Below the pieces are notes generated by a model. The model was not told the origin of the DNA. It searched no databases and was given only the letters and a program-made list of their open reading frames with translations. 64,000 nt of DNA, from NCBI GenBank assembly GCA_965214705.1, contig CBDCCI010000002.1, forward strand, positions 2,880,001-2,944,000. The letters are read 5' to 3'. Of this stretch, positions 9,455-20,705 are shown in pieces; positions within the stretch are counted from its first letter, which is position 1; each line of letters begins with the position of its first letter. Source of the DNA: Alphaproteobacteria bacterium (GTDB lineage: Bacteria; Pseudomonadota; Alphaproteobacteria; UBA828). A program made the position numbers and the translations under genes.

Positions 9455-9494
9455 CCCGGACCATGGTGCGGTGCACGACGCGCCGGGGCCGTGA
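9455..9494 (+). promoter_or_regulatory. Mor/C-type activator box and -35 region, copy A (its -10 and ATG displaced to 11659-11673 by IS1634)
   Basis: CCCGGACCATGGTGCGGTGCACG (9455-9477) is identical to the reverse complement of 17513-17535. Confidence 0.65.
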
Positions 9495-11654
9495 CCCAAG
9501 TTGGCACTTTTTCCGACCAGCCGAGCCTGTTCGAGCTAGTTTTGCGGCGCTGAACCACTAGATGTTGGGGTTGGAGGACACCTGAGACCCACATTTGCCA
9601 TTCGTGGTCCTGGAAGCCAATTGTGGGGCCAGGACTTTGGAGTTGAGTCGATATCCCTCTTGCCAGATGCCGCGAACGCCGTGTATGCGAAACAGGCATC
9701 GCAGAAACGGCGCCGCCATGTACATCAAGGCAACCAGGACACACACCGACAAGGCCGGCCAGCCGGTCCGAAGCCATCGCCTCGTGCTCGCCCAGCGCGT
9801 CGGCGACAAGGTGCGCCACAGGACGCTGCTCAATCTCGGCACCGACTATCCGGTGCCGCGCGAGAAGTGGAAGGCCGTCACCGAACTCGCCGAGGCGCTG
9901 CTTCACGGCAAGCCGCCGCTGTTCGAGGGCGAGGCGGATGTGCGGGCCGCAGCCGAGGACATCGTCGCCAAGCTCAGGGCCAGGGGGTTCCGCGTCGAGG
10001 CGATGCAGGAAGAGGCGCGCAAGCCCGACATCGCCACCGTCGACCTCGATACCCTGGAGCACGAGAACCCGCGCACGGTCGGCTGCGAGCGCCTGTGCCT
10101 CAAGGCCCTCGACGCCCTCGGCTTCGCCGAAATCCTCCACGGCCTCGACATCAAGGGCCGCGACGGGCGCATCGCCAGCGCGCTGATCGTCGCCAGGATG
10201 GTCCATCCCGCCAGCGAGCGTGATACCAGCCGCTGGCTCCGCCACGACAGCGCGGCCGCCGAGCTCCTGGGCCTGGAGGGCGACCGCAAGGCGCTGCGGC
10301 GCAAGACGCTCTACCGCATCGGCGACCTGCTCTGGCGCCACCGCGCCGCCATCCAGCGGGAGCTGTTCAACCGTGAGCGCGCACTGCTCGACCTGCCCGA
10401 GACGATCGCCTTCTACGATCTCACCAACGTCCACTACCACGGCCACACGGGCGGCGAGCTTCCCAGGTTCGGGCGCTCCAAGCAGAAGCGCGACGACTGT
10501 CCCCTCATCACGCTGGCGCTGGCGCTCGACGGCGCGGGCTTCCCGCGCAGTTGCGAGATCCTGCCGGGCAACGTGAGCGAGCCGGGCACGCTGCACGAGG
10601 CGCTGGCGCGGCTCGAGGCGGTGTGCGGCGGCACGGCGCCGAAGCCCACGGTGGTCATGGACGCGGGCATCGCCACCGAGAAAAACATCGCGTGGCTGGG
10701 CGAGCAGGGCTACGACTGGATCGCGGTCAGCCGCGGTGCCAGGCCTGCGCCGCCCGAGGGCGGACCCGAGGCCCTGCTGATCACCAGCGCGCGCCACGAG
10801 GTGCGGGCCTGGCGGCTTGCCAGCGAGGACGGCGAGGCGCGGCTCTACGTCGTCAGCGAGGGCAAGAAGAAGGCCGAGAACGCGATCATCGGCCTGAGGC
10901 GGAACCGCTTCGAGGCGGCGCTGGAAAGGCTCCACGGCGGCCTCCCGGTCAAGGGCCGCCTCAAGCGCTACGACAAGGTGCTGGAGAGCATAGGCCGCCT
11001 CAAGCAGCGCTTCTCCGCCGTCGCCAGGCACTACGAGATCACGGTCGAGAGGGCGAAAACCGGCCCCAATGCCACCGCCGTGCGCTTCAAGCGCAGGCCG
11101 CGATACGACGAGGCCGATGAGGGCGCCGGTGCCTATGTGCTGCGCACCAGCCACGTCGACTGGGACATCGAGACGGTCCTGCGGACGTACTGGCGGATCA
11201 CGGATATCGAGGCGACATTCCGGAGCCTGAAATCCGAGCTCGGCCTTCGCCCGATCTGGCACCAGCTCGACCGGCGCATCGCGGCCCACCTGCTGATCGC
11301 CGTGCTGGCCTACCACGCCGTGCATCTGATCCGTACCCGGCTGGCCGCGCGCGGCATCCACAAGTGCTGGGCGTCGATCCGCGAGAGCATGCGGACCTGG
11401 GTGCGGATCACCACGCGCCTGCGCCAGACCGACGGCACCTTGATCGTCAACCGCCAGGACACGCGCCCGGCCGCCGAGGTTGCCGCAATCTCCTCGGCGG
11501 CGGGCGTGGACCCCGCCATCCACCGCACGAGGACCCGTCTGATGAGCTGACAGAATCTCACAAAATGTGGGGCCATGTTGGAATCGACCGAGAAAAATAT
11601 CGCGTTGAATCAAACCAATAGGGAACACAGGCAGCGGAAAAGTGCCAACTTGGG
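9495..11654 (+). mobile_element. IS1634-family insertion sequence
   Basis: Terminal IRs CCCAAGTTGGCACTTTT / AAAAGTGCCAACTTGGG; GTGA duplicated at 9491-9494 and 11655-11658. Confidence 0.92.
9718..11550 (+). CDS. IS1634-family DDE transposase
   Basis: YDLTNVHY, GRSKQKRDD, VVMDAGI, IEATFRSLKSELGLRPIWH. Confidence 0.92.
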   Translation: MYIKATRTHTDKAGQPVRSHRLVLAQRVGDKVRHRTLLNLGTDYPVPREKWKAVTELAEALLHGKPPLFEGEADVRAAAEDIVAKLRARGFRVEAMQEEARKPDIATVDLDTLEHENPRTVGCERLCLKALDALGFAEILHGLDIKGRDGRIASALIVARMVHPASERDTSRWLRHDSAAAELLGLEGDRKALRRKTLYRIGDLLWRHRAAIQRELFNRERALLDLPETIAFYDLTNVHYHGHTGGELPRFGRSKQKRDDCPLITLALALDGAGFPRSCEILPGNVSEPGTLHEALARLEAVCGGTAPKPTVVMDAGIATEKNIAWLGEQGYDWIAVSRGARPAPPEGGPEALLITSARHEVRAWRLASEDGEARLYVVSEGKKKAENAIIGLRRNRFEAALERLHGGLPVKGRLKRYDKVLESIGRLKQRFSAVARHYEITVERAKTGPNATAVRFKRRPRYDEADEGAGAYVLRTSHVDWDIETVLRTYWRITDIEATFRSLKSELGLRPIWHQLDRRIAAHLLIAVLAYHAVHLIRTRLAARGIHKCWASIRESMRTWVRITTRLRQTDGTLIVNRQDTRPAAEVAAISSAAGVDPAIHRTRTRLMS

Positions 11655-11712
11655 GTGACAGGATCCCGCCATGCGGTGGGCGAGCGAATGGGTCGCAGCC
11701 GGTGGGGTTATA

Positions 11713-12230
11713 TGGATGCGCGGATGCCCGGAACGAGTCCGGGCATGTCCGCGCATGACGGGATGGGGCATCGCGTGCGACGGATGTTGCGGGGCACGAC
11801 GCAATGTCCACACGCGTTGGGTGCGCGATGACGAGAACGTCGGGCGGGCACTTGGGCGACTCTCGGGCAGAAAACGTTGCTGTGGAATCCCGCTTATCTC
11901 ACTTAATCCCACTTTATCCCGGAGAATCCCACCCAATCCCGGCGCATCCCGCATGAAATTAAGTTGTCGCATCCCGCTTTCGTCACGGGGCGTTCTTTCG
12001 GCCCACCCGTTCTCCCACATCGTCATGCCCGCACTTGTTGCGGGCATCCACGCGTTTTTCTGAGTACGGCGGGTTTTGCTGAGGAAGATGGCTCGATACA
12101 CGGAACGAGTGGGGGCAAGTCCAGGCTTGACGCGAGAACACCGTGCAAGCGTGCGCGACTCCTCTTGTGCGCGCGAGACCTTTCAGGCTCGCGCGACGTG
12201 GATGGCCGGAACAAGTCCGGCCATGACGAA
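11713..12230. repeat. Cluster of REP-like palindromes (GTCATGSCCG..CGGSCATCCA type)
   Basis: Copies at ~11713-11760, ~12021-12054 and ~12197-12229, in alternating orientation. Confidence 0.7.
11887..11975 (+). repeat. ATCCC motif array with 10-bp period
   Basis: ATC(C/T)C starts at 11896, 11906, 11916, 11926, 11936, 11946, plus 11887 and 11971. Confidence 0.75.
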
Positions 12231-12268
12231 AAAGAGTATTGGTCCCGCCCTAGCCGAGACTGCAGGCC

Positions 12269-14263
12269 CTACAGCAACCCCCGCACCGCCTCCACGATGC
12301 GGTCCTGCGAGGGGATGACCTCGAGCTCTAACCGGTCGTTGTAGGGCATCGGCGTGTGCGGGGCGCCGAGGCGGGCGACCGGCGCGTCGAGATAGTCGAA
12401 GGCCTTGTCCACCACCATCGCCGCAACCTCGGCGCCGAAGCCGCCGCGCACCCAGGCCTCGTGCACGATGAGGAGGCGATTGGTCTTGCGCACGCTGGCC
12501 AGGATGGTCTCCTCGTCCAGCGGCTGCAGCGTGCGGGGGTCGACCACCTCGACGCTGATGCCGTCGCGCTCCAGCACCGTGGCGGCGCTCAGCGCGCGCG
12601 GCACCATGGCGGACGTCGCGACCACGGTCACGTCCGTGCCCGCGCGCTTGATGTCGGCCTTGCCGAGGGGGATGGCGTAGAGCTCCTCCGGCACCGGGCC
12701 GTTGCCGCCGAGGTAGAGCAGCTTCTGCTCCAGGAAGACCACCGGGTTCTCGTCGCGGATCGCGGCGACCAGCAGGCCCTTGGCGTCGTAGGGGGTGGAC
12801 GGCGCCGCCACCACCAGCCCCGGCACGTGGGTGAACCAGGCCTCCAGGCTCTGGCTGTGCTGGGCCGCGAGCCGGATGCCGCCGCCTTGCGGGCCGCGCA
12901 CCACCAGCGGCACGCTGGGCTTGCCCCCCAGCATGAAGCGGAACTTGGCCGCCTGGTTGACCAGCATGTCCATGGTGAGCGCCACGAAGTCGAAGATCTG
13001 GATCTCCACGACAGGACGCATGCCGGCGATGGCGGCGCCGACGCCGCAGCCGACGAAGGTGGCCTCGGAGATCGGCGTGTCGCGCACACGCTCAGGCCCG
13101 TAGCGGTCCATCAGCCCCTTGGAGACGCCGAAGATGCCGCCGGTGGCGCCGACATCCTCGCCCATGAGGAAGACCCGGTCGTCGCGCAGCATCTCCTGGT
13201 CCAGCGCCTCGTTGAGCGCCTCGGGGTAGGAGAGCTCGCGCTCGGTCTCGGGCCCCGGCTCGGTGTGCGCCGCGTGGGGGGCGTAGACCGCATCGAGCAT
13301 CACGTGCACCGGCGGCTCCGGGCTCTCGCGGCCGTAAGAGACGGCGGTCTCGATCTCATCGTCTACGGCCTGCGTGGTCTCGTCGAACTGCTCGTCGGAG
13401 AAGCTGGCTTCGGAGGTGAGGCGCTTTTCCATGCGCGCGATGGGGTCGCGGTCCAGCCAGGATTCGAGCTCGTCCTCGGGCCGCGGATCGCGCAGATTGA
13501 CGCGGAGCGAGTGCTGGCCGTGGCGGTAGGTCATCGCCTCGATCAGGGTCGGCCCCTCGCCGGCGCGGGCGCGGTCCACCGCCTCGCGCAGCACGAGGTA
13601 GACCTCCACGCCGTCGTTGCCGTCCACGGTGATGCCGGGGATCTCGTAGGAGGCCGCGCGGTTCGAGACTTGGGAGACCGCCGTGGTGTTCCGATAGGAG
13701 GTGGAGAGCGCGTACTGGTTGTTCTCGCAGACGAAGATCACCGGCAGCTTCCATACCGCAGCCAGGTTGAGCGATTCGTGGAAGACGCCCTGGTTCGACG
13801 CGCCGTCACCGAAGAAGGCCACCGCGACCCGATCCGTCCCCTGCAGCTTGGCGGCGAGGCCCGCGCCGGTGGCGAGCGGCATGGCGGCGCCGACGATGCC
13901 GTTCGCGCCCATGATGTTGAGCTCCATGTCCGCGATGTGCATGGAGCCGCCGAGGCCCTGGCAGTAGCCGGTCTGGCGGCCCATCAGCTCCGCCATCATG
14001 CGGTCGATGCGCGCGCCCTTGGCGATGCAGTGGCCGTGGCCGCGGTGGTAGGAGGCGATGATGTCGTCATCGCGCAGCGCCGCGCAGACGCCGGCGGCGA
14101 TCGCCTCCTCGCCCTTGTAGCTGTGGGCCGTGCCCTTAACGACGCCTTCCTGGAAGAGGTCGGCGGTCTTGTCCTCGAAGGCGCGGATGCGGCGCATGGT
14201 GACGTAGAGGTCGCGGAGGGTCTCCGCCTCCACGGTAATGTTGCTGGTCGCGCTCTCGTTCAT
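12269..14263 (-). CDS. Fused E1 alpha/beta 2-oxoacid dehydrogenase (TPP-dependent)
   Basis: Alpha domain (HRGHGH, GGSMH, FGDGA..ENNQY) joined in frame to beta domain (MGEDV, DTPISE, AAQHSQ). Confidence 0.9.
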
Positions 14264-14484
14264 CGCCCTTCGCCTCCCTGGCGTGCCGCTCTGGCCCCGG
14301 CGCATTGTTCACGACTGTGCTTCGGCGCGCCACCCCAAGTCTTAAGGCCGCACGCTCCTCCCCTCTGCTGCCAGTTCACTGTCGTCCGGACGGAACGAAA
14401 TGATTTGACCGGCGTGCCCGGCATTCGAAGGATCGACGCCCGCGACGCCTTGCCGCGCGCGAGAGGTGCGATGGACCGGATGCC

Positions 14485-15720
14485 GTGATCGCTCAGGCCA
14501 TACTGCGGAGGCCGCCGGCGTTGATCGCCGTGATGTGCCTCGCCGAGGTGCTCGCGATGACCGGCTTCGCGGCCTACTGGTCGCTGCTGCCGGTGCTCCA
14601 GGCCGAGTGGCACATGAGCAACGCCATGGCCGGCTGGCTCTCGGGCGCGTTCTTCGGCGGTTACGTCCTGGTGGTCGCGTTTCTGACCGCGATGACGGAC
14701 CGGGTCGATGCCCGCTACGTCTTCATCCTGGGTGCGGCGCTGTCTGCCGCCGGTCTGGTCGGGCTGGCGCTGCTGGCGACGGGATTCTGGTCGGCTCTGC
14801 CGTGGCGCGTGATCGCGGGCGCAGGCCTCGCTGGCACCTACATGCCGGGCCTCAAGGTGCTCACCGACCGCCTGCCGCAAGAACGACAGGCACGCGCGGT
14901 GGCCTTCTACACGTCCTCCTTCAGCATCGGCACGGCGGTGTCCTATTCCCTCGCGGGCGGCGCGCTGGAGTGGTTCGGCTGGCGCGGCGCCCTGCTGTTC
15001 ACGGCCGCCGGCCCGGTCCTTGCCGGCATCGCGCTTGCGACGATCGTCGCACCGCGGCAGCCGGAAGCGGCCGCCGAGGAACGCGGCCACGTGCTCGACT
15101 TCCGCCCGGTGCTGCGCTCGCGGGAGACCATGGCCTACATCATGGCCTACGCCGGCCACGGGGCCGAGCTCTTCGCCATGCGCTCCTGGATCGTGCCCTT
15201 CCTGGTGTTCTGCCTGGGCAGCGGCAGCGGACGCGAGCTCAACGCCACGCTCTTCGCCACGGCGATCGCCCTCGTCGCGGTGGTGTCGAGCATCGGCGGA
15301 GCGGAGCTTGCGTTGCGCATCGGCCGCGTGCGTCTGCTCACCTGGGTAATGCTGGCGACCTTCGCGATCAGCGTCGCGGTCGGCTTTTCCTCGCCGCTTC
15401 CCTTCGCCGTGGTGGTGGTGCTTTGCCTGATTTATTCTGCCGCGATTCAGGCCGATTCTGCGGCGCTTACCGCCGGTGCCGTCGCTACCTCGCCGGTGGG
15501 TCATCGCGGCGCGACGCTGGCGGTGCATTCGACGCTGGGGTTCGGTGGCTCGCTGTTCGCGCCGGCGCTTGTGGGCGTGGTGCTCGACGTTGCCGCGCCA
15601 CTGGGCGGCACGACCGCATGGGGTCTCGCTTTCCTTTCAATGGGATCGATGGCGCTGCTCGGCTACGTTTTTTTCCTGCTGGTACGCCGACGCCCGGCTC
15701 ACGGGCCGACTTTGGGATAG
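14485..15720 (+). CDS. MFS transporter
   Basis: About 12 hydrophobic segments; TDRVDAR motif-A-like loop; YMPGLK. Confidence 0.88.
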   Translation: MIAQAILRRPPALIAVMCLAEVLAMTGFAAYWSLLPVLQAEWHMSNAMAGWLSGAFFGGYVLVVAFLTAMTDRVDARYVFILGAALSAAGLVGLALLATGFWSALPWRVIAGAGLAGTYMPGLKVLTDRLPQERQARAVAFYTSSFSIGTAVSYSLAGGALEWFGWRGALLFTAAGPVLAGIALATIVAPRQPEAAAEERGHVLDFRPVLRSRETMAYIMAYAGHGAELFAMRSWIVPFLVFCLGSGSGRELNATLFATAIALVAVVSSIGGAELALRIGRVRLLTWVMLATFAISVAVGFSSPLPFAVVVVLCLIYSAAIQADSAALTAGAVATSPVGHRGATLAVHSTLGFGGSLFAPALVGVVLDVAAPLGGTTAWGLAFLSMGSMALLGYVFFLLVRRRPAHGPTLG

Positions 15721-16035
15721 ACGGCGACCGAACGCGCCGCTCCAATCCGAACCAAGATTTCGCGAGGGTGTGAGGCACTATGTCGATTTGGACATACCAT
15801 TTTATCTGTTCTATATGGCTTATTTACATGATAATGGAGTGTTCTGCCGCCGGTATCCCTGTCCTCGCTGGGCCGGTCGCAGCGTAGTCGCGGCGCCGCG
15901 TCCGATCCCGGGCCGGCGGCGGACAAGGCCCCGGTGCCGCTGGCGGCCACTGTTTGCCTCCTGGGCTCTCGGCGGTCCGGTGGCGCCGGGGCCGGCTTTA
16001 CTTGCCGGAGACATGGACCGCGCCCGCGACTCCGC

Positions 16036-16422
16036 TCAGGCGCCCCCTCCCAGCAGATGTGCGTTGATCTGGTCGAGCTGCTTGTCGAGGCCGGCGATCA
16101 TCTTGTCCATGCCATCGAGGGTCGCGCGGAGCGCCGCGATCTCCCCCTGAACCGCCGTGACCGAGCGTCCGAGAGTTGCGAACTCGCGGGCGTCGGGAAG
16201 GGATTCGAGCGCCGTGGAAAGCTTGACCAGGCCGCGCTCGACGGTCTCCATGCGCGCGCCCAGGGCGCCGACGCCGGTGTCGCGCCTCTCCAGGTCGCTG
16301 ACGCTCTTGGTGGTAACGGCACCGGCGGATTCGAGCCGGCGCACGCGCACGAAGAGACCGACGCAGGCGCCGACGATGGCGCCGACCACGCCGCGCGCGA
16401 CCCACGTCTCGAGATCGCTCAT
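16036..16422 (-). CDS. DUF2730-like phage membrane/coiled-coil protein
   Basis: N-terminal TM, coiled coil, LESLPDARE motif, ends INAHLL; ATGA overlap with the upstream gene. Confidence 0.6.
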   Translation of the reverse strand: MSDLETWVARGVVGAIVGACVGLFVRVRRLESAGAVTTKSVSDLERRDTGVGALGARMETVERGLVKLSTALESLPDAREFATLGRSVTAVQGEIAALRATLDGMDKMIAGLDKQLDQINAHLLGGGA

Positions 16423-16949
16423 CGACCGGCCGCCCCGCCCTCGCGCGAACGCCGCTTCTCGATCTGACGGGCGCCGAACCACCAGAGCATCGCGGCGGTG
16501 AAGAGATAGAGCACGGTCTCGACGATGCGGGGCCGGAGGCTTACGGCTGCGAGATCGGAAGCGCCGAGCAGGAAGTAGATCGCGCCCACGAGAGCGAAGA
16601 GGCTCCAGGTGAGCGCCGGCCGCGTGAGGCCCCGCACCACGTCGACGAGCTGCATGGCCCAGCCCTCGCCGGGCTTGGACCAGCGCCGGGCGGCCTCCCG
16701 GTAGGAAGCCTCCATGGCCTCCCACTCGGCCCGCTCGCGGGTGGCCTGAGCCTCGATGGCGGCATGCGCCGCAGCGCCCTCCGCCTCGGCCTTGGCGAGC
16801 TCGATGTCGAGACGGCGCAGATCCAGCTCCTGGGCGTGCCGCTGGCGCGACTGGAAGAAGTCGACCACGGCCGACAGCGCCGTGCCGAGCAGCCCGGTCG
16901 CGCCGCCGGTGAGTACCGAGACGCCGAAGTTGAAAAGCGTTTCAAGCAT
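16419..16949 (-). CDS. Holin-like phage membrane protein
   Basis: GGATGLLG N-terminus, coiled coil, VRGLTRP, two TMs, WWFGAR; follows the putative endolysin. Confidence 0.6.
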   Translation of the reverse strand: MLETLFNFGVSVLTGGATGLLGTALSAVVDFFQSRQRHAQELDLRRLDIELAKAEAEGAAAHAAIEAQATRERAEWEAMEASYREAARRWSKPGEGWAMQLVDVVRGLTRPALTWSLFALVGAIYFLLGASDLAAVSLRPRIVETVLYLFTAAMLWWFGARQIEKRRSREGGAAGR

Positions 16950-16994
16950 GGGACTCTCCTATGCGCCCTACCGCTTCAATACTTGAGGGCGCGT

Positions 16995-17483
16995 TCATTC
17001 CGTTCGCCCTATTGCTGGGCTCGTTTGCCGCGCGCCTACCGGCGCGACGCTTGAGGGCGGGTTGATCTCCAGTTCGAAGGGTTGGTCCGCGGCCCAGTCC
17101 ATGAGGTGACGGAAGGCCGTGCGCGAGGCGAGCACCGCCGCCTGCTGGCGCCCCTTCACGCTCAACCGCCCCCGGCGGAGACCGGGCAGCAGGCAGCCCT
17201 GGGTGTGGGTATGCCAGCCGCGCTCCACGTCGCCGCCGAGGTTGCCGGCATGGAAGAGGATGTGGCTGCGGCCCGGCACCTGAGTCACCAGCAGGCAGCG
17301 CCGGTGGCGCGGCGAAAGGTGCGGCACAACATCGTAGAGCCCAGCCGGGATGCAGGAGCGGTTGCGCCGGTTGCCGCGCCAGGGCGGCTCCATGATCCAG
17401 GTGGGCGAGAGGCCGGGGCCGCTCAGGACCCCGACGGTGCCCTGGTCGCTTTCGTGCCGCCGTGTGAGGATCGCCCGTTGCAT
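16995..17483 (-). CDS. DUF5675-family protein (putative endolysin)
   Basis: EPPW..N..SCIPAGLY, VPGRSHILFHAGN, TQGCLLPG, SRTAF. Confidence 0.75.
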   Translation of the reverse strand: MQRAILTRRHESDQGTVGVLSGPGLSPTWIMEPPWRGNRRNRSCIPAGLYDVVPHLSPRHRRCLLVTQVPGRSHILFHAGNLGGDVERGWHTHTQGCLLPGLRRGRLSVKGRQQAAVLASRTAFRHLMDWAADQPFELEINPPSSVAPVGARQTSPAIGRTE

Positions 17484-17535
17484 GGGGCGATCATGGCGGG
17501 GCGGGCCCCGCCCGTGCACCGCACCATGGTCCGGG
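17484..17535 (-). promoter_or_regulatory. Putative Mor/C-activated leaderless promoter of the lysis-type cassette, copy B
   Basis: 23-bp box, 17-nt spacer, CATGAT, 6 nt, then ATG; no Shine-Dalgarno sequence. Confidence 0.65.
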
Positions 17536-20210: not shown

Positions 20211-20705
20211 ATGACTACCGGTACTCCCCTTTCCGGCGGGCCGGCGACGCGCAAGCTGCGGGCGCTCTGGCACAGCGCCTATCATCTGGGCCTGATCCAC
20301 GACCGCTCGGACGACGCGCTTGGCGCCTGGCTCCGTCGCCTCGCGTACCTCGATGGGAACGCCTGCGCTGAACCGGCCAGCCTCGACCGGCCCATCCAGG
20401 CACTCAAAGCCTGGCTCGCGCGCGCCGCCGGCGTGGACTGGCGGCCGCATGTCTCCCTCGGGCAGGACGGGCGGGTGCGGGAGACGCGCCGCCCGCGGGC
20501 GCGCGTTCTGGAAGCGCAGTGGCGCCTGCTCCACCGCCGGGGCCGGGTGCGGATCGGAAGCGACGCGGCTCTCGGCGCCTACGCCGCCCGCCTTGTCGGC
20601 CTGGGCCGCGCTGATTCACATCTCGCTCTCAGCAACGCTCAGACCGATGCCCTGATCCGCCACTTCGGCAAGTGCATCCGCGCGGCGAGCGAACGCCATG
20701 ACTGA
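20211..20705 (+). CDS. GemA/gp16 (DUF1018)-like protein; open frame extends upstream to 19908
   Basis: RKLRALWHSAYHLGLIHDRSDDAL..IQALKAW; AAAGGGA upstream of ATG 20211. Confidence 0.65.
   Translation: MTTGTPLSGGPATRKLRALWHSAYHLGLIHDRSDDALGAWLRRLAYLDGNACAEPASLDRPIQALKAWLARAAGVDWRPHVSLGQDGRVRETRRPRARVLEAQWRLLHRRGRVRIGSDAALGAYAARLVGLGRADSHLALSNAQTDALIRHFGKCIRAASERHD

Follow-up and report, generated by a model that had tools for sequence, protein, structure and literature searches.

A 23-bp box occurs twice in a 64,000-nucleotide stretch of DNA (hereafter the window) from Alphaproteobacteria bacterium (lineage UBA828; contig CBDCCI010000002.1, positions 2,880,001 through 2,944,000) and about 50 times in the source genome (herein G000; 7.9 Mb, three contigs), each time as the upstream part of a predicted promoter with a fixed layout. 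Comparison with related prophages and phages indicates that the box very probably belongs to a late promoter of the type used by phage Mu. The promoters precede a dispersed, phage-derived set of particle genes, copies of the small terminase gene (terS), and short cassettes, most of which carry a phased sequence array. The reading that fits these observations best, and that we hold to be probable if by no great measure, is a gene transfer agent (GTA)-like system whose packaging origins are scattered over the chromosome and transcribed late.

The Box Is Part of a Predicted Promoter with Fixed Geometry

Matching of the box in the window at three or fewer mismatches gave two matches against 0.01 expected, and none of 100 shuffled windows contained two. 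A sequence-only reading of the window had placed exact copies at 9455 through 9477 (+; copy A) and 17513 through 17535 (−; copy B), and both are exact; its count of two, taken from the window, falls well short of the number in the genome. Copy B forms a complete predicted late promoter (17481 through 17535, −) with the layout that had been claimed: the box, 17 nucleotides (nt), CATGAT (17495 through 17490), CGCCCC, and the ATG at 17483, which is the start of a DUF5675 gene (PF18925). The box of copy A (+) comprises a 16-bp dyad (9456 through 9471) and a weak −35 hexamer, TGCACG (9472 through 9477), and is followed by a 17-nt spacer (9478 through 9494, +). The promoter is interrupted at this point, between −35 and −10, by an insertion at 9495 through 11654 (+) that landed exactly ahead of the −10 element. 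GTGA borders the insertion on either side, once at the end of the spacer, as a target duplication; the transposase is of the IS1634 family (NF033559, 257 bits against a cut-off of 100), and with its terminal inverted repeats the element classes as the insertion sequence (IS) IS1634, of which the genome holds 59 near-full copies. With the IS removed and a single GTGA retained, copy A reads, as had been claimed, 17 nt, the −10-like CAGGAT (11659 through 11664), CCCGCC, and the ATG at 11671, the stretch from CAGGAT through ATG occupying 11659 through 11673 (+); this ATG is at the predicted +1 of what we call cassette A. The predicted IS-free allele exists in a relative, G017 (L059:7133), with identical spacer, −10, and ATG. 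None of the sequencing-run contigs listed has a joint matching clean absence of the IS. The open reading frame (ORF) at 11671 has no match in Pfam or PHROG. The proposed dyad center of −43.5, counting the A of the ATG as +1, was borne out; the extent of the dyad had been understated, as it spans 16 bp in the window copies (CCGGACCA|TGGTGCGG, −51 through −36).

Across G000 the box occurs in 6 exact copies, 17 with at most one mismatch, 32 with at most two, and 40 with at most three. Nothing but the box entered into the selection of these 40 hits, and 37 of them have an ATG 28 to 30 nt downstream (38 once copy A is read without its IS; background 1.25% per position); 35 of the 37 have both an A at −11 and a T at −7. 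The ATG at a fixed distance agrees with the earlier proposal that promoter geometry is under selection. A full model that combines box and core, with 45 sites as its training set, finds 50 sites in G000 and none in a reversed-sequence control. The consensus is CCGSACCA|TGGTGCGG (−51 through −36), TGCACR (−35 through −30), 17 (16 to 18) nt, CAnnAT, 6 nt, and ATG; among the 45 sites, −11A is present in 44 and −7T in 43, and the −35 hexamer TGCACG/A keeps 3 to 4 of 6 positions. In G006, a relative, the ATG is present in 19 of 20 box-selected loci. A plain sigma70 scan returned 0 sites and did not pick up promoters of the box type. Between 30 orthologous pairs the box is 94.5% conserved and the spacer 80 to 83%, a difference that arises partly through the choice of pairs. 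A common dispersed repeat without fixed spacing had been put forward as the finding that would speak against a promoter; the boxes are indeed a dispersed repeat family, and the spacing is fixed. Six to seven matches of the genome-wide pattern in Bacteroidota were set aside as unrelated, since their core differs and 1 to 10 codons follow.

Related Prophages Carry the Same Dyad

Ten prophage loci were searched, independently of the box, for dyads in intergenic DNA with a −10-like hexamer after them. GGACCA|TGGTCC dyads turned up at two places in the prophage on contig G002:C1, behind mor and ahead of the head protease gene; in G006 they lie behind mor, and in two prophages of G012 ahead of the protease gene. 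Five of the ten loci are without this dyad, a few unrelated weak dyads were also returned, and no dyad of the box type was recovered from the prophage pieces G002:C6, G010, and G012:C6. Viral contig L086, with a Mor of 59% identity, has CCGAACCATGGTCCGG-TGCACA-N17-CATCAT directly behind mor. Phage RR1-B has its own, different duplicated dyad with equal spacing, also behind mor and before the protease gene. It is because the same dyad stands behind mor and before the head protease gene in intact Mu-like prophages that we regard the box as a Mor/C-type late promoter, and with high confidence that an activator binds it and that its timing is late. Mu Mor and Mu C each bind 16-bp dyads centered at −43.5 (PMC4390567, PMC2582627, bioRxiv 10.1101/2025.05.02.651988). 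The sequence-only reading had looked to Mor; judging by the targets described below, the factor appears to behave like Mu C (late) and not like Mor (middle).

The prophage at G002:C1:174-213 kb (L055/L037/L038) is an apparently complete transposable prophage with a contractile tail, TGT..ACA ends, and a 5-bp duplication. Its capsid is 83% identical to the domesticated capsid of G000, and by this comparison it is a close living relative of the ancestor of the dispersed set.

The candidate activator is encoded in the window at 20698 through 21045 (+), as the last gene of the order gam, gemA, activator. The protein passes the Pfam cut-off for PF08765 (28 bits against 24.9), matches the PHROG late-activator family phrog_836 (E 6.7e-14), and finds the RR1-B late activator by tblastn (E 5e-5). 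Against the solved Mu Mor the profile match is weak (E 0.12 to 0.39), with the LGG-VY-PR linker aligned; a monomer model with a predicted local distance difference test score of 92 placed 1rr7 at rank 19 (E 1.4) in a fold search, and a wide search gave nothing with Z of at least 5. The strongest support for a Mor/C factor is comparative and comes from the prophage dyads. Together these results agree with the earlier suggestion that this Mor/C-family protein is the likely box binder.

Upstream in the same module lie a CI-like repressor with an S24 domain (ORF limits 18115 through 19068, −; the true start is probably later), a small divergent gene in the Cro/Ner position (phrog_7669; 19056 through 19343, +), a Mu Gam-like protein (19366 through 19911, +), and GemA (19908 through 20705, +). 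The gemA ORF contains a GC-rich palindromic repeat (20056 through 20176) with high contig depth, a dispersed repeat that draws spurious microRNA matches; Rfam gave nothing above threshold at the boxes or the array, and its weak microRNA-type matches are at the hairpin near 20.06 to 20.17 kb. The dps gene (21269 through 21763) adjoins mor in every mor locus examined in the relatives; it is probably one flank of the ancestral insertion and possibly a link to stress induction.

The Predicted Promoters Precede a Dispersed Particle Gene Set

The sequence-only reading had expected a regulon that extends outside the module and across host genes. The first part holds and the second does not: with copy A counted without its IS, 14 of the 50 sites precede phage-derived genes (4 structural or lysis genes and 10 terS genes) and 36 precede short cassettes. 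The four structural and lysis sites stand before the lysis operon (copy B), the head-tail operon, terL (the large terminase gene), and the portal gene. In the lysis operon, the DUF5675 gene (16995 through 17483, −), which starts at the +1 ATG of copy B and is 75% identical to the gene of an intact prophage, presumably encodes the lysin, given its position; it is followed by a membrane protein that is holin-like by position (phrog_6637; 16419 through 16949, −) and a DUF2730-like third gene (16036 through 16422, −). The head-tail operon has 16 genes and lies beside the ATP synthase genes (C3:2804346-2819072); terL and portal are at C3:1.237-1.240 Mb.

Head, tail, packaging, and lysis genes are complete in G000, and no replication or integration genes of the set's own were found. 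There was no match to the MuA/MuB of the G002 prophage; a PF02914 search carries no weight, its control having stayed silent. Profile searches of G000 for PF10124, PF08765, and PF04233 returned nothing, blanks that mean little given that PF08765 missed the known mor and the capsid is of another family. The capsid is nearest to B3-like transposable phages (39% identical to B3/JD18).

Among the relatives, all 12 DUF5675 loci have the box upstream, with the ATG as the gene's own start; the box also stands ahead of the portal gene in 15 of 15 loci and of the protease gene in 14 of 16. At the portal gene a short leader begins at the +1 ATG, and in 14 of the 15 loci its frame is shifted against that of the gene by one common step; this offset is what stop-start coupling would give and argues that the +1 ATG is translated. 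The ten terS sites precede Mu gp27-type copies or fragments, and TerS covers PF11985 (1 through 171 of 173) and phrog_426 (5 through 181 of 184).

A second family of box targets was noticed, a protein of 270 to 290 aa with the start VATQRQIEANRRNA and no Pfam or PHROG match (L311:234-1106, corresponding to G000:C1:3770934; G000:C3:1711309; L240; L243). Its Atlas neighbors at 0.96 are unnamed, partly viral clusters, and the 3′ end of its gene bears a CAAAACGAACCCAA motif that is found at 10 places in G000 (2 of them box-linked) and in all nine sampled cassettes of G018. The pairing of this protein with CAAAACGAACCCAA shares the terS-plus-array design and is possibly a second packaging-specificity family.

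Most Cassettes Carry Phased Arrays

The 36 mini-cassettes are short stretches with negative codon scores and ORFs of unconserved length; a reading of these ORFs as conserved small proteins was rejected, orthologue lengths running from 8 to more than 150 codons. Behind the terS genes and most noncoding sites lies an array phased at 10 bp with an A/T tract at its end, in three types: II (RTCCCRC; copy A), I (GGCCRC), and III (GTGCCRC; in G002). The type II array of cassette A (11887 through 11977, +) consists of seven RTCYCRS units about 10 bp apart, an A/T tract, and one more unit, and is a candidate TerS-binding or pac site. A strict phased chain is present in 28 of the 36 cassettes, against 0.5% of random windows, and 3 to 4 further cassettes have a weaker array; a looser pattern gave mostly chance matches and was dropped together with the flags based on it. 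A terminal motif of type I or II was located 35 times in G000, in 34 cases downstream of a box. The type II pattern was not found in two viral fragments (42% and 37% complete).

Several cassettes retain decayed terS starts and would therefore derive from terS cassettes by internal loss. In a TerS tree of 34 rows (20 chosen from about 130 matches, plus our own, G002, and phage copies), the dispersed copies adjoin the core and phage TerS, and array type tracks TerS lineage and species, an association that amounts to few events, as there are no more than three types and the type I rows are near-orthologous.

The arrays have a counterpart at prophage ends. The gpF-side end carries a phased GATTCC(G/A)C stretch with a copy of a longer terminal site on each side, and a phased CC(A/G)C/CCGG chain of at least four lies within 110 bp of that end in 6 of 9 prophage ends, against about 1% of random windows; in the G010 prophage a type II-like array is visible by eye and was missed by the strict score. 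In Mu, pac lies at the corresponding place, in the left end between the first two transposase sites. The first cut of Mu-like phages falls in host DNA, and its distance from the phage end is set (PMC5557969); a relocated end signal would therefore start packaging of the chromosome. We give about an even chance that the arrays are packaging origins, with a TerS-binding signal inherited from the phage end. Readings of the cassettes as transposon ends, miniature inverted-repeat transposable elements, or mini-Mu were rejected: four empty sites show no target duplication, and the cassettes contain no prophage terminal site.

Upstream of copy A, the segment from 6446 through 9385 is variable cargo, an N6 methyltransferase/HsdR-N protein (weak MADS2 match) and a small gene; relatives have different restriction-modification or toxin-antitoxin genes at this spot. 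Several other cassettes border variable inserts of 2 to 17 kb.

The System Is Inherited within One Genus

Of 20 genus genomes, 17 contain the box, at 8 to 58 copies each, and none of 40 genomes outside the genus contains it. A collection-wide scan matched at least 100 stretches, of which 80 loci were read; the carriers are labeled uncultured Alphaproteobacteria or Rhodospirillales, and related DNA is present in sequencing runs labeled sponge or coral metagenome (word shares 0.29 to 0.34); one RNA run contains related strains. The capsid shows 90 to 93% identity in 16 of the 20 genomes, and identity across the genus ranges from 75 to 99% for capsid, portal, TerL, and Mor, with median dN/dS of 0.087 for capsid, 0.13 for portal, 0.19 for mor, and 0.31 for DUF5675. 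The capsid and atpA trees have several clades in common. Taken together, and despite losses or breaks in seven relatives, this points to a particle set inherited vertically under purifying selection. Most modules are still adjacent in G002 and G003, between dps and atpH, which suggests one ancestral insertion that was split up later.

Box, orthologous mor, capsid, and terL all went undetected in G011, G015, and G016. A second atpA of G011, on a small contig and nearly identical to that of G013/G004 (L303, G011:C2), suggests bin contamination. In G005 a second, degenerate box lies upstream of the lysis promoter, inside the module (L060:12774). A natural deletion in G018 has removed CI, the early genes, and the head operon and has cut mor short at its 5′ side (L036, G018:C1:2.006-2.021 Mb); this genome retains lysis genes, terL, portal, tail tip, and boxes, and has one of its cassettes where G000 has type I.

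Cassettes have been gained and lost between relatives, and most G006 sites are at orthologous positions. In three of 20 G006 loci (L188, L193, and L200) the upstream and downstream flanks lie at distant places in G000; the flanks of two of these map to other G000 boxes or half-boxes. Boxes appear from these flanks to act as rearrangement breakpoints.

Discussion

Building on the observed sequences, geometry, conservation, gene content, targets, and anatomy, we propose that a CI/Cro-like switch flips and frees gam-gemA-mor. The 20698 protein would bind the 16-bp dyad at −43.5 and bring housekeeping RNA polymerase to the weak −35/−10, with transcription beginning at the ATG or next to it. All boxes would fire together, turning on a transposase-less B3/Mu-derived particle set, about 10 small-terminase copies, and about 36 cassettes, and heads, short tails, terminase, and lysis proteins would be produced. 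TerS copies would then bind the arrays, and the single TerL would pack headfuls of host DNA from dozens of fixed chromosomal origins. Transcription through a noncoding cassette may open the site for terminase, or the cassettes may be slowly decaying relics. That the set makes a working particle we consider likely. The fuller proposal, which we put forward tentatively and at rather less than even weight, is an independently evolved Mu/B3-derived GTA with 30 to 50 cassettes of late promoter, TerS, and pac, in which one activator would switch particle genes and packaging origins and in which TerS lineages, and the second protein family, would compete for the motor and choose the regions transferred.

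Several observations weigh against a GTA-like system with dispersed origins. No gpF match was found in G000. The six positive prophage ends represent two independent types, and of the others two scored 2 and one scored 1. Conservation of ATG and −10 in 22 of the 30 orthologous pairs is circular, as the search pattern demanded both. Sites in G000 are unevenly spaced (coefficient of variation of the gaps 1.1 to 1.3, with the largest gap reaching 876 kb); neither regular spacing nor a strand preference was found, and GC skew in G000 is too weak for assigning replichores. The joint absence from G011, G015, and G016 falls in one atpA clade and counts as one event. G018 keeps 24 boxes with a truncated mor and no head genes, and its nine sampled cassettes are about 91% alike. 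Boxes occur without an orthologous mor match in G001, G007, and G012 (92%, 67%, and 99% complete, respectively), and the loci retrieved from G004, G006, G008, G012, G013, G018, and G020 include broken or absent parts, some of which may be assembly errors or further splitting.

The homogeneous cassettes of G018 point to autonomous spread or conversion, as expected if the terS/array cassettes were selfish satellites. Such satellites would exploit the late activator together with capsids, taken either from the domesticated set or from intact Mu-like prophages of the genus, to get themselves and neighboring DNA packaged, and would spread through box-to-box recombination or conversion. Amplification of terS (2 to 20 copies per genome, with terL, portal, and capsid single), the turnover of cassettes between relatives, the three G006 loci with distant flanks, and the presence in the genus of intact prophages with a near-identical dyad are all in keeping with satellites, which imply the same promoter reading and are compatible with the best explanation. 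Against them, the G000 cassettes are old and diverged (median pairwise identity beyond the box 57%), most G006 sites are orthologous, and the particle genes are under purifying selection; on this evidence we consider satellites unlikely. The whole set could instead be a slowly decaying prophage, with boxes as neutral debris of old terS duplications. The broken parts in seven relatives, the IS-split copy A, and the unconserved cassette ORFs would fit, but dN/dS stays at 0.09 to 0.31 genus-wide, cassettes are orthologous with the box better conserved than the spacer, and box, spacing, ATG, and array are retained while the DNA between them has diverged, which leaves decay highly unlikely.

Marginally more probable than decay, and still a long way from likely, is a particle with another job, such as a DNA-carrying decoy or one directed at hosts or competitors, in which the arrays would be autoregulatory TerS operators or short regulatory RNAs. 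A terminator-like hairpin 3′ of array A (11975 through 11992) would give a defined short RNA, the SPP1 terminase represses its own synthesis (going by a title cited in PMC6316719), and tail fiber genes vary among relatives. Terminator-like sites overall are nonetheless at chance level (5 against 4.3), Rfam is silent above threshold, terL and portal are strongly conserved, and the arrays resemble prophage-end sequence. A Mor-like protein rewired to host genes, the outcome toward which the sequence-only reading had leaned, is the least credible and very improbable: the next host gene is co-oriented in 19 of 36 cassettes, which could read into it, but it is convergent in the other 17, copy A among them. 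The next genes are also functionally unrelated or transposases, the array lies between promoter and host gene, and whether a given host locus has a cassette changes from relative to relative.

A GTA-like system with dispersed origins has partial counterparts in several known systems. The Mu promoters Pm, Plys, PI, PP, and Pmom, with Mor and C, have as here a 16-bp imperfect dyad at −43.5, a weak −35, and a recognizable −10, and in Mu too the activator gene follows gemA and promoters stand ahead of the lysis and head-protease genes; here the dyad sequence is another, the −10 starts with C, the ATG lies at the predicted +1, and the copies number about 50 on the chromosome rather than 4 to 5 inside one prophage (PMC4390567, PMC2582627, bioRxiv 10.1101/2025.05.02.651988). 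The B3-like phages (Pseudomonas phage B3/JD18 and Rhizobium phage RR1-B) and the Mu-like prophages of the genus share homologous gam, gemA, mor, DUF5675, terL, and portal genes and an equal promoter layout. Unlike them, the set described here gave no match to the MuA/MuB and gpF queries, is split over four loci, has a short tape measure (269 aa), and has its terS moved out and amplified.

The GTAs of Rhodobacter capsulatus and Caulobacter crescentus (RcGTA and CcGTA; PMC11841831, PMC11150451) are likewise domesticated, multi-locus systems with vertically inherited head-tail genes, a dedicated activator, and no replication module. The system described here differs in its independent Mu/B3 origin, in having a predicted Mor/C activator where these GTAs have GafA/GafYZ (PMC11150451), and in the RcGTA marker PF09343, which was not found in any of 21 genus genomes (the control was positive in Caulobacter). 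Known GTAs are described as lacking both a site where packaging starts and a DNA-binding domain in TerS (PMC11841831), whereas TerS here matches the Mu gp27 profile over its whole length and is accompanied by its own array; a short TerS is a mark of the RcGTA-like family. By marker and full-length TerS, the set would not belong to the RcGTA-like family. Lateral transduction and island-mediated transduction by Staphylococcus aureus pathogenicity islands also package chromosomal DNA in situ from a terminase site (PMC6687093), in that case from one prophage or island, in contrast to dozens of chromosome-kept sites, each with a late promoter. Our literature search, which covered few subscription papers, turned up no account of a GTA-like set of Mu origin with scattered promoter-terS-array cassettes. 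The Mu late promoter type, GTAs, and in situ packaging from pac sites are known already; a dispersed-origin GTA design would be undescribed.

How GTAs choose the DNA they carry is an open question, and some GTAs show packaging peaks (PMC11841831). Candidate origins are here readable from sequence, and if the reading is true, packaged DNA should show coverage steps at about 40 named positions. The genus would then hold a GTA that arose from a transposable phage, alongside close intact relatives of its ancestor, and each genome would offer about 50 natural variants of one putative Mor/C binding site.

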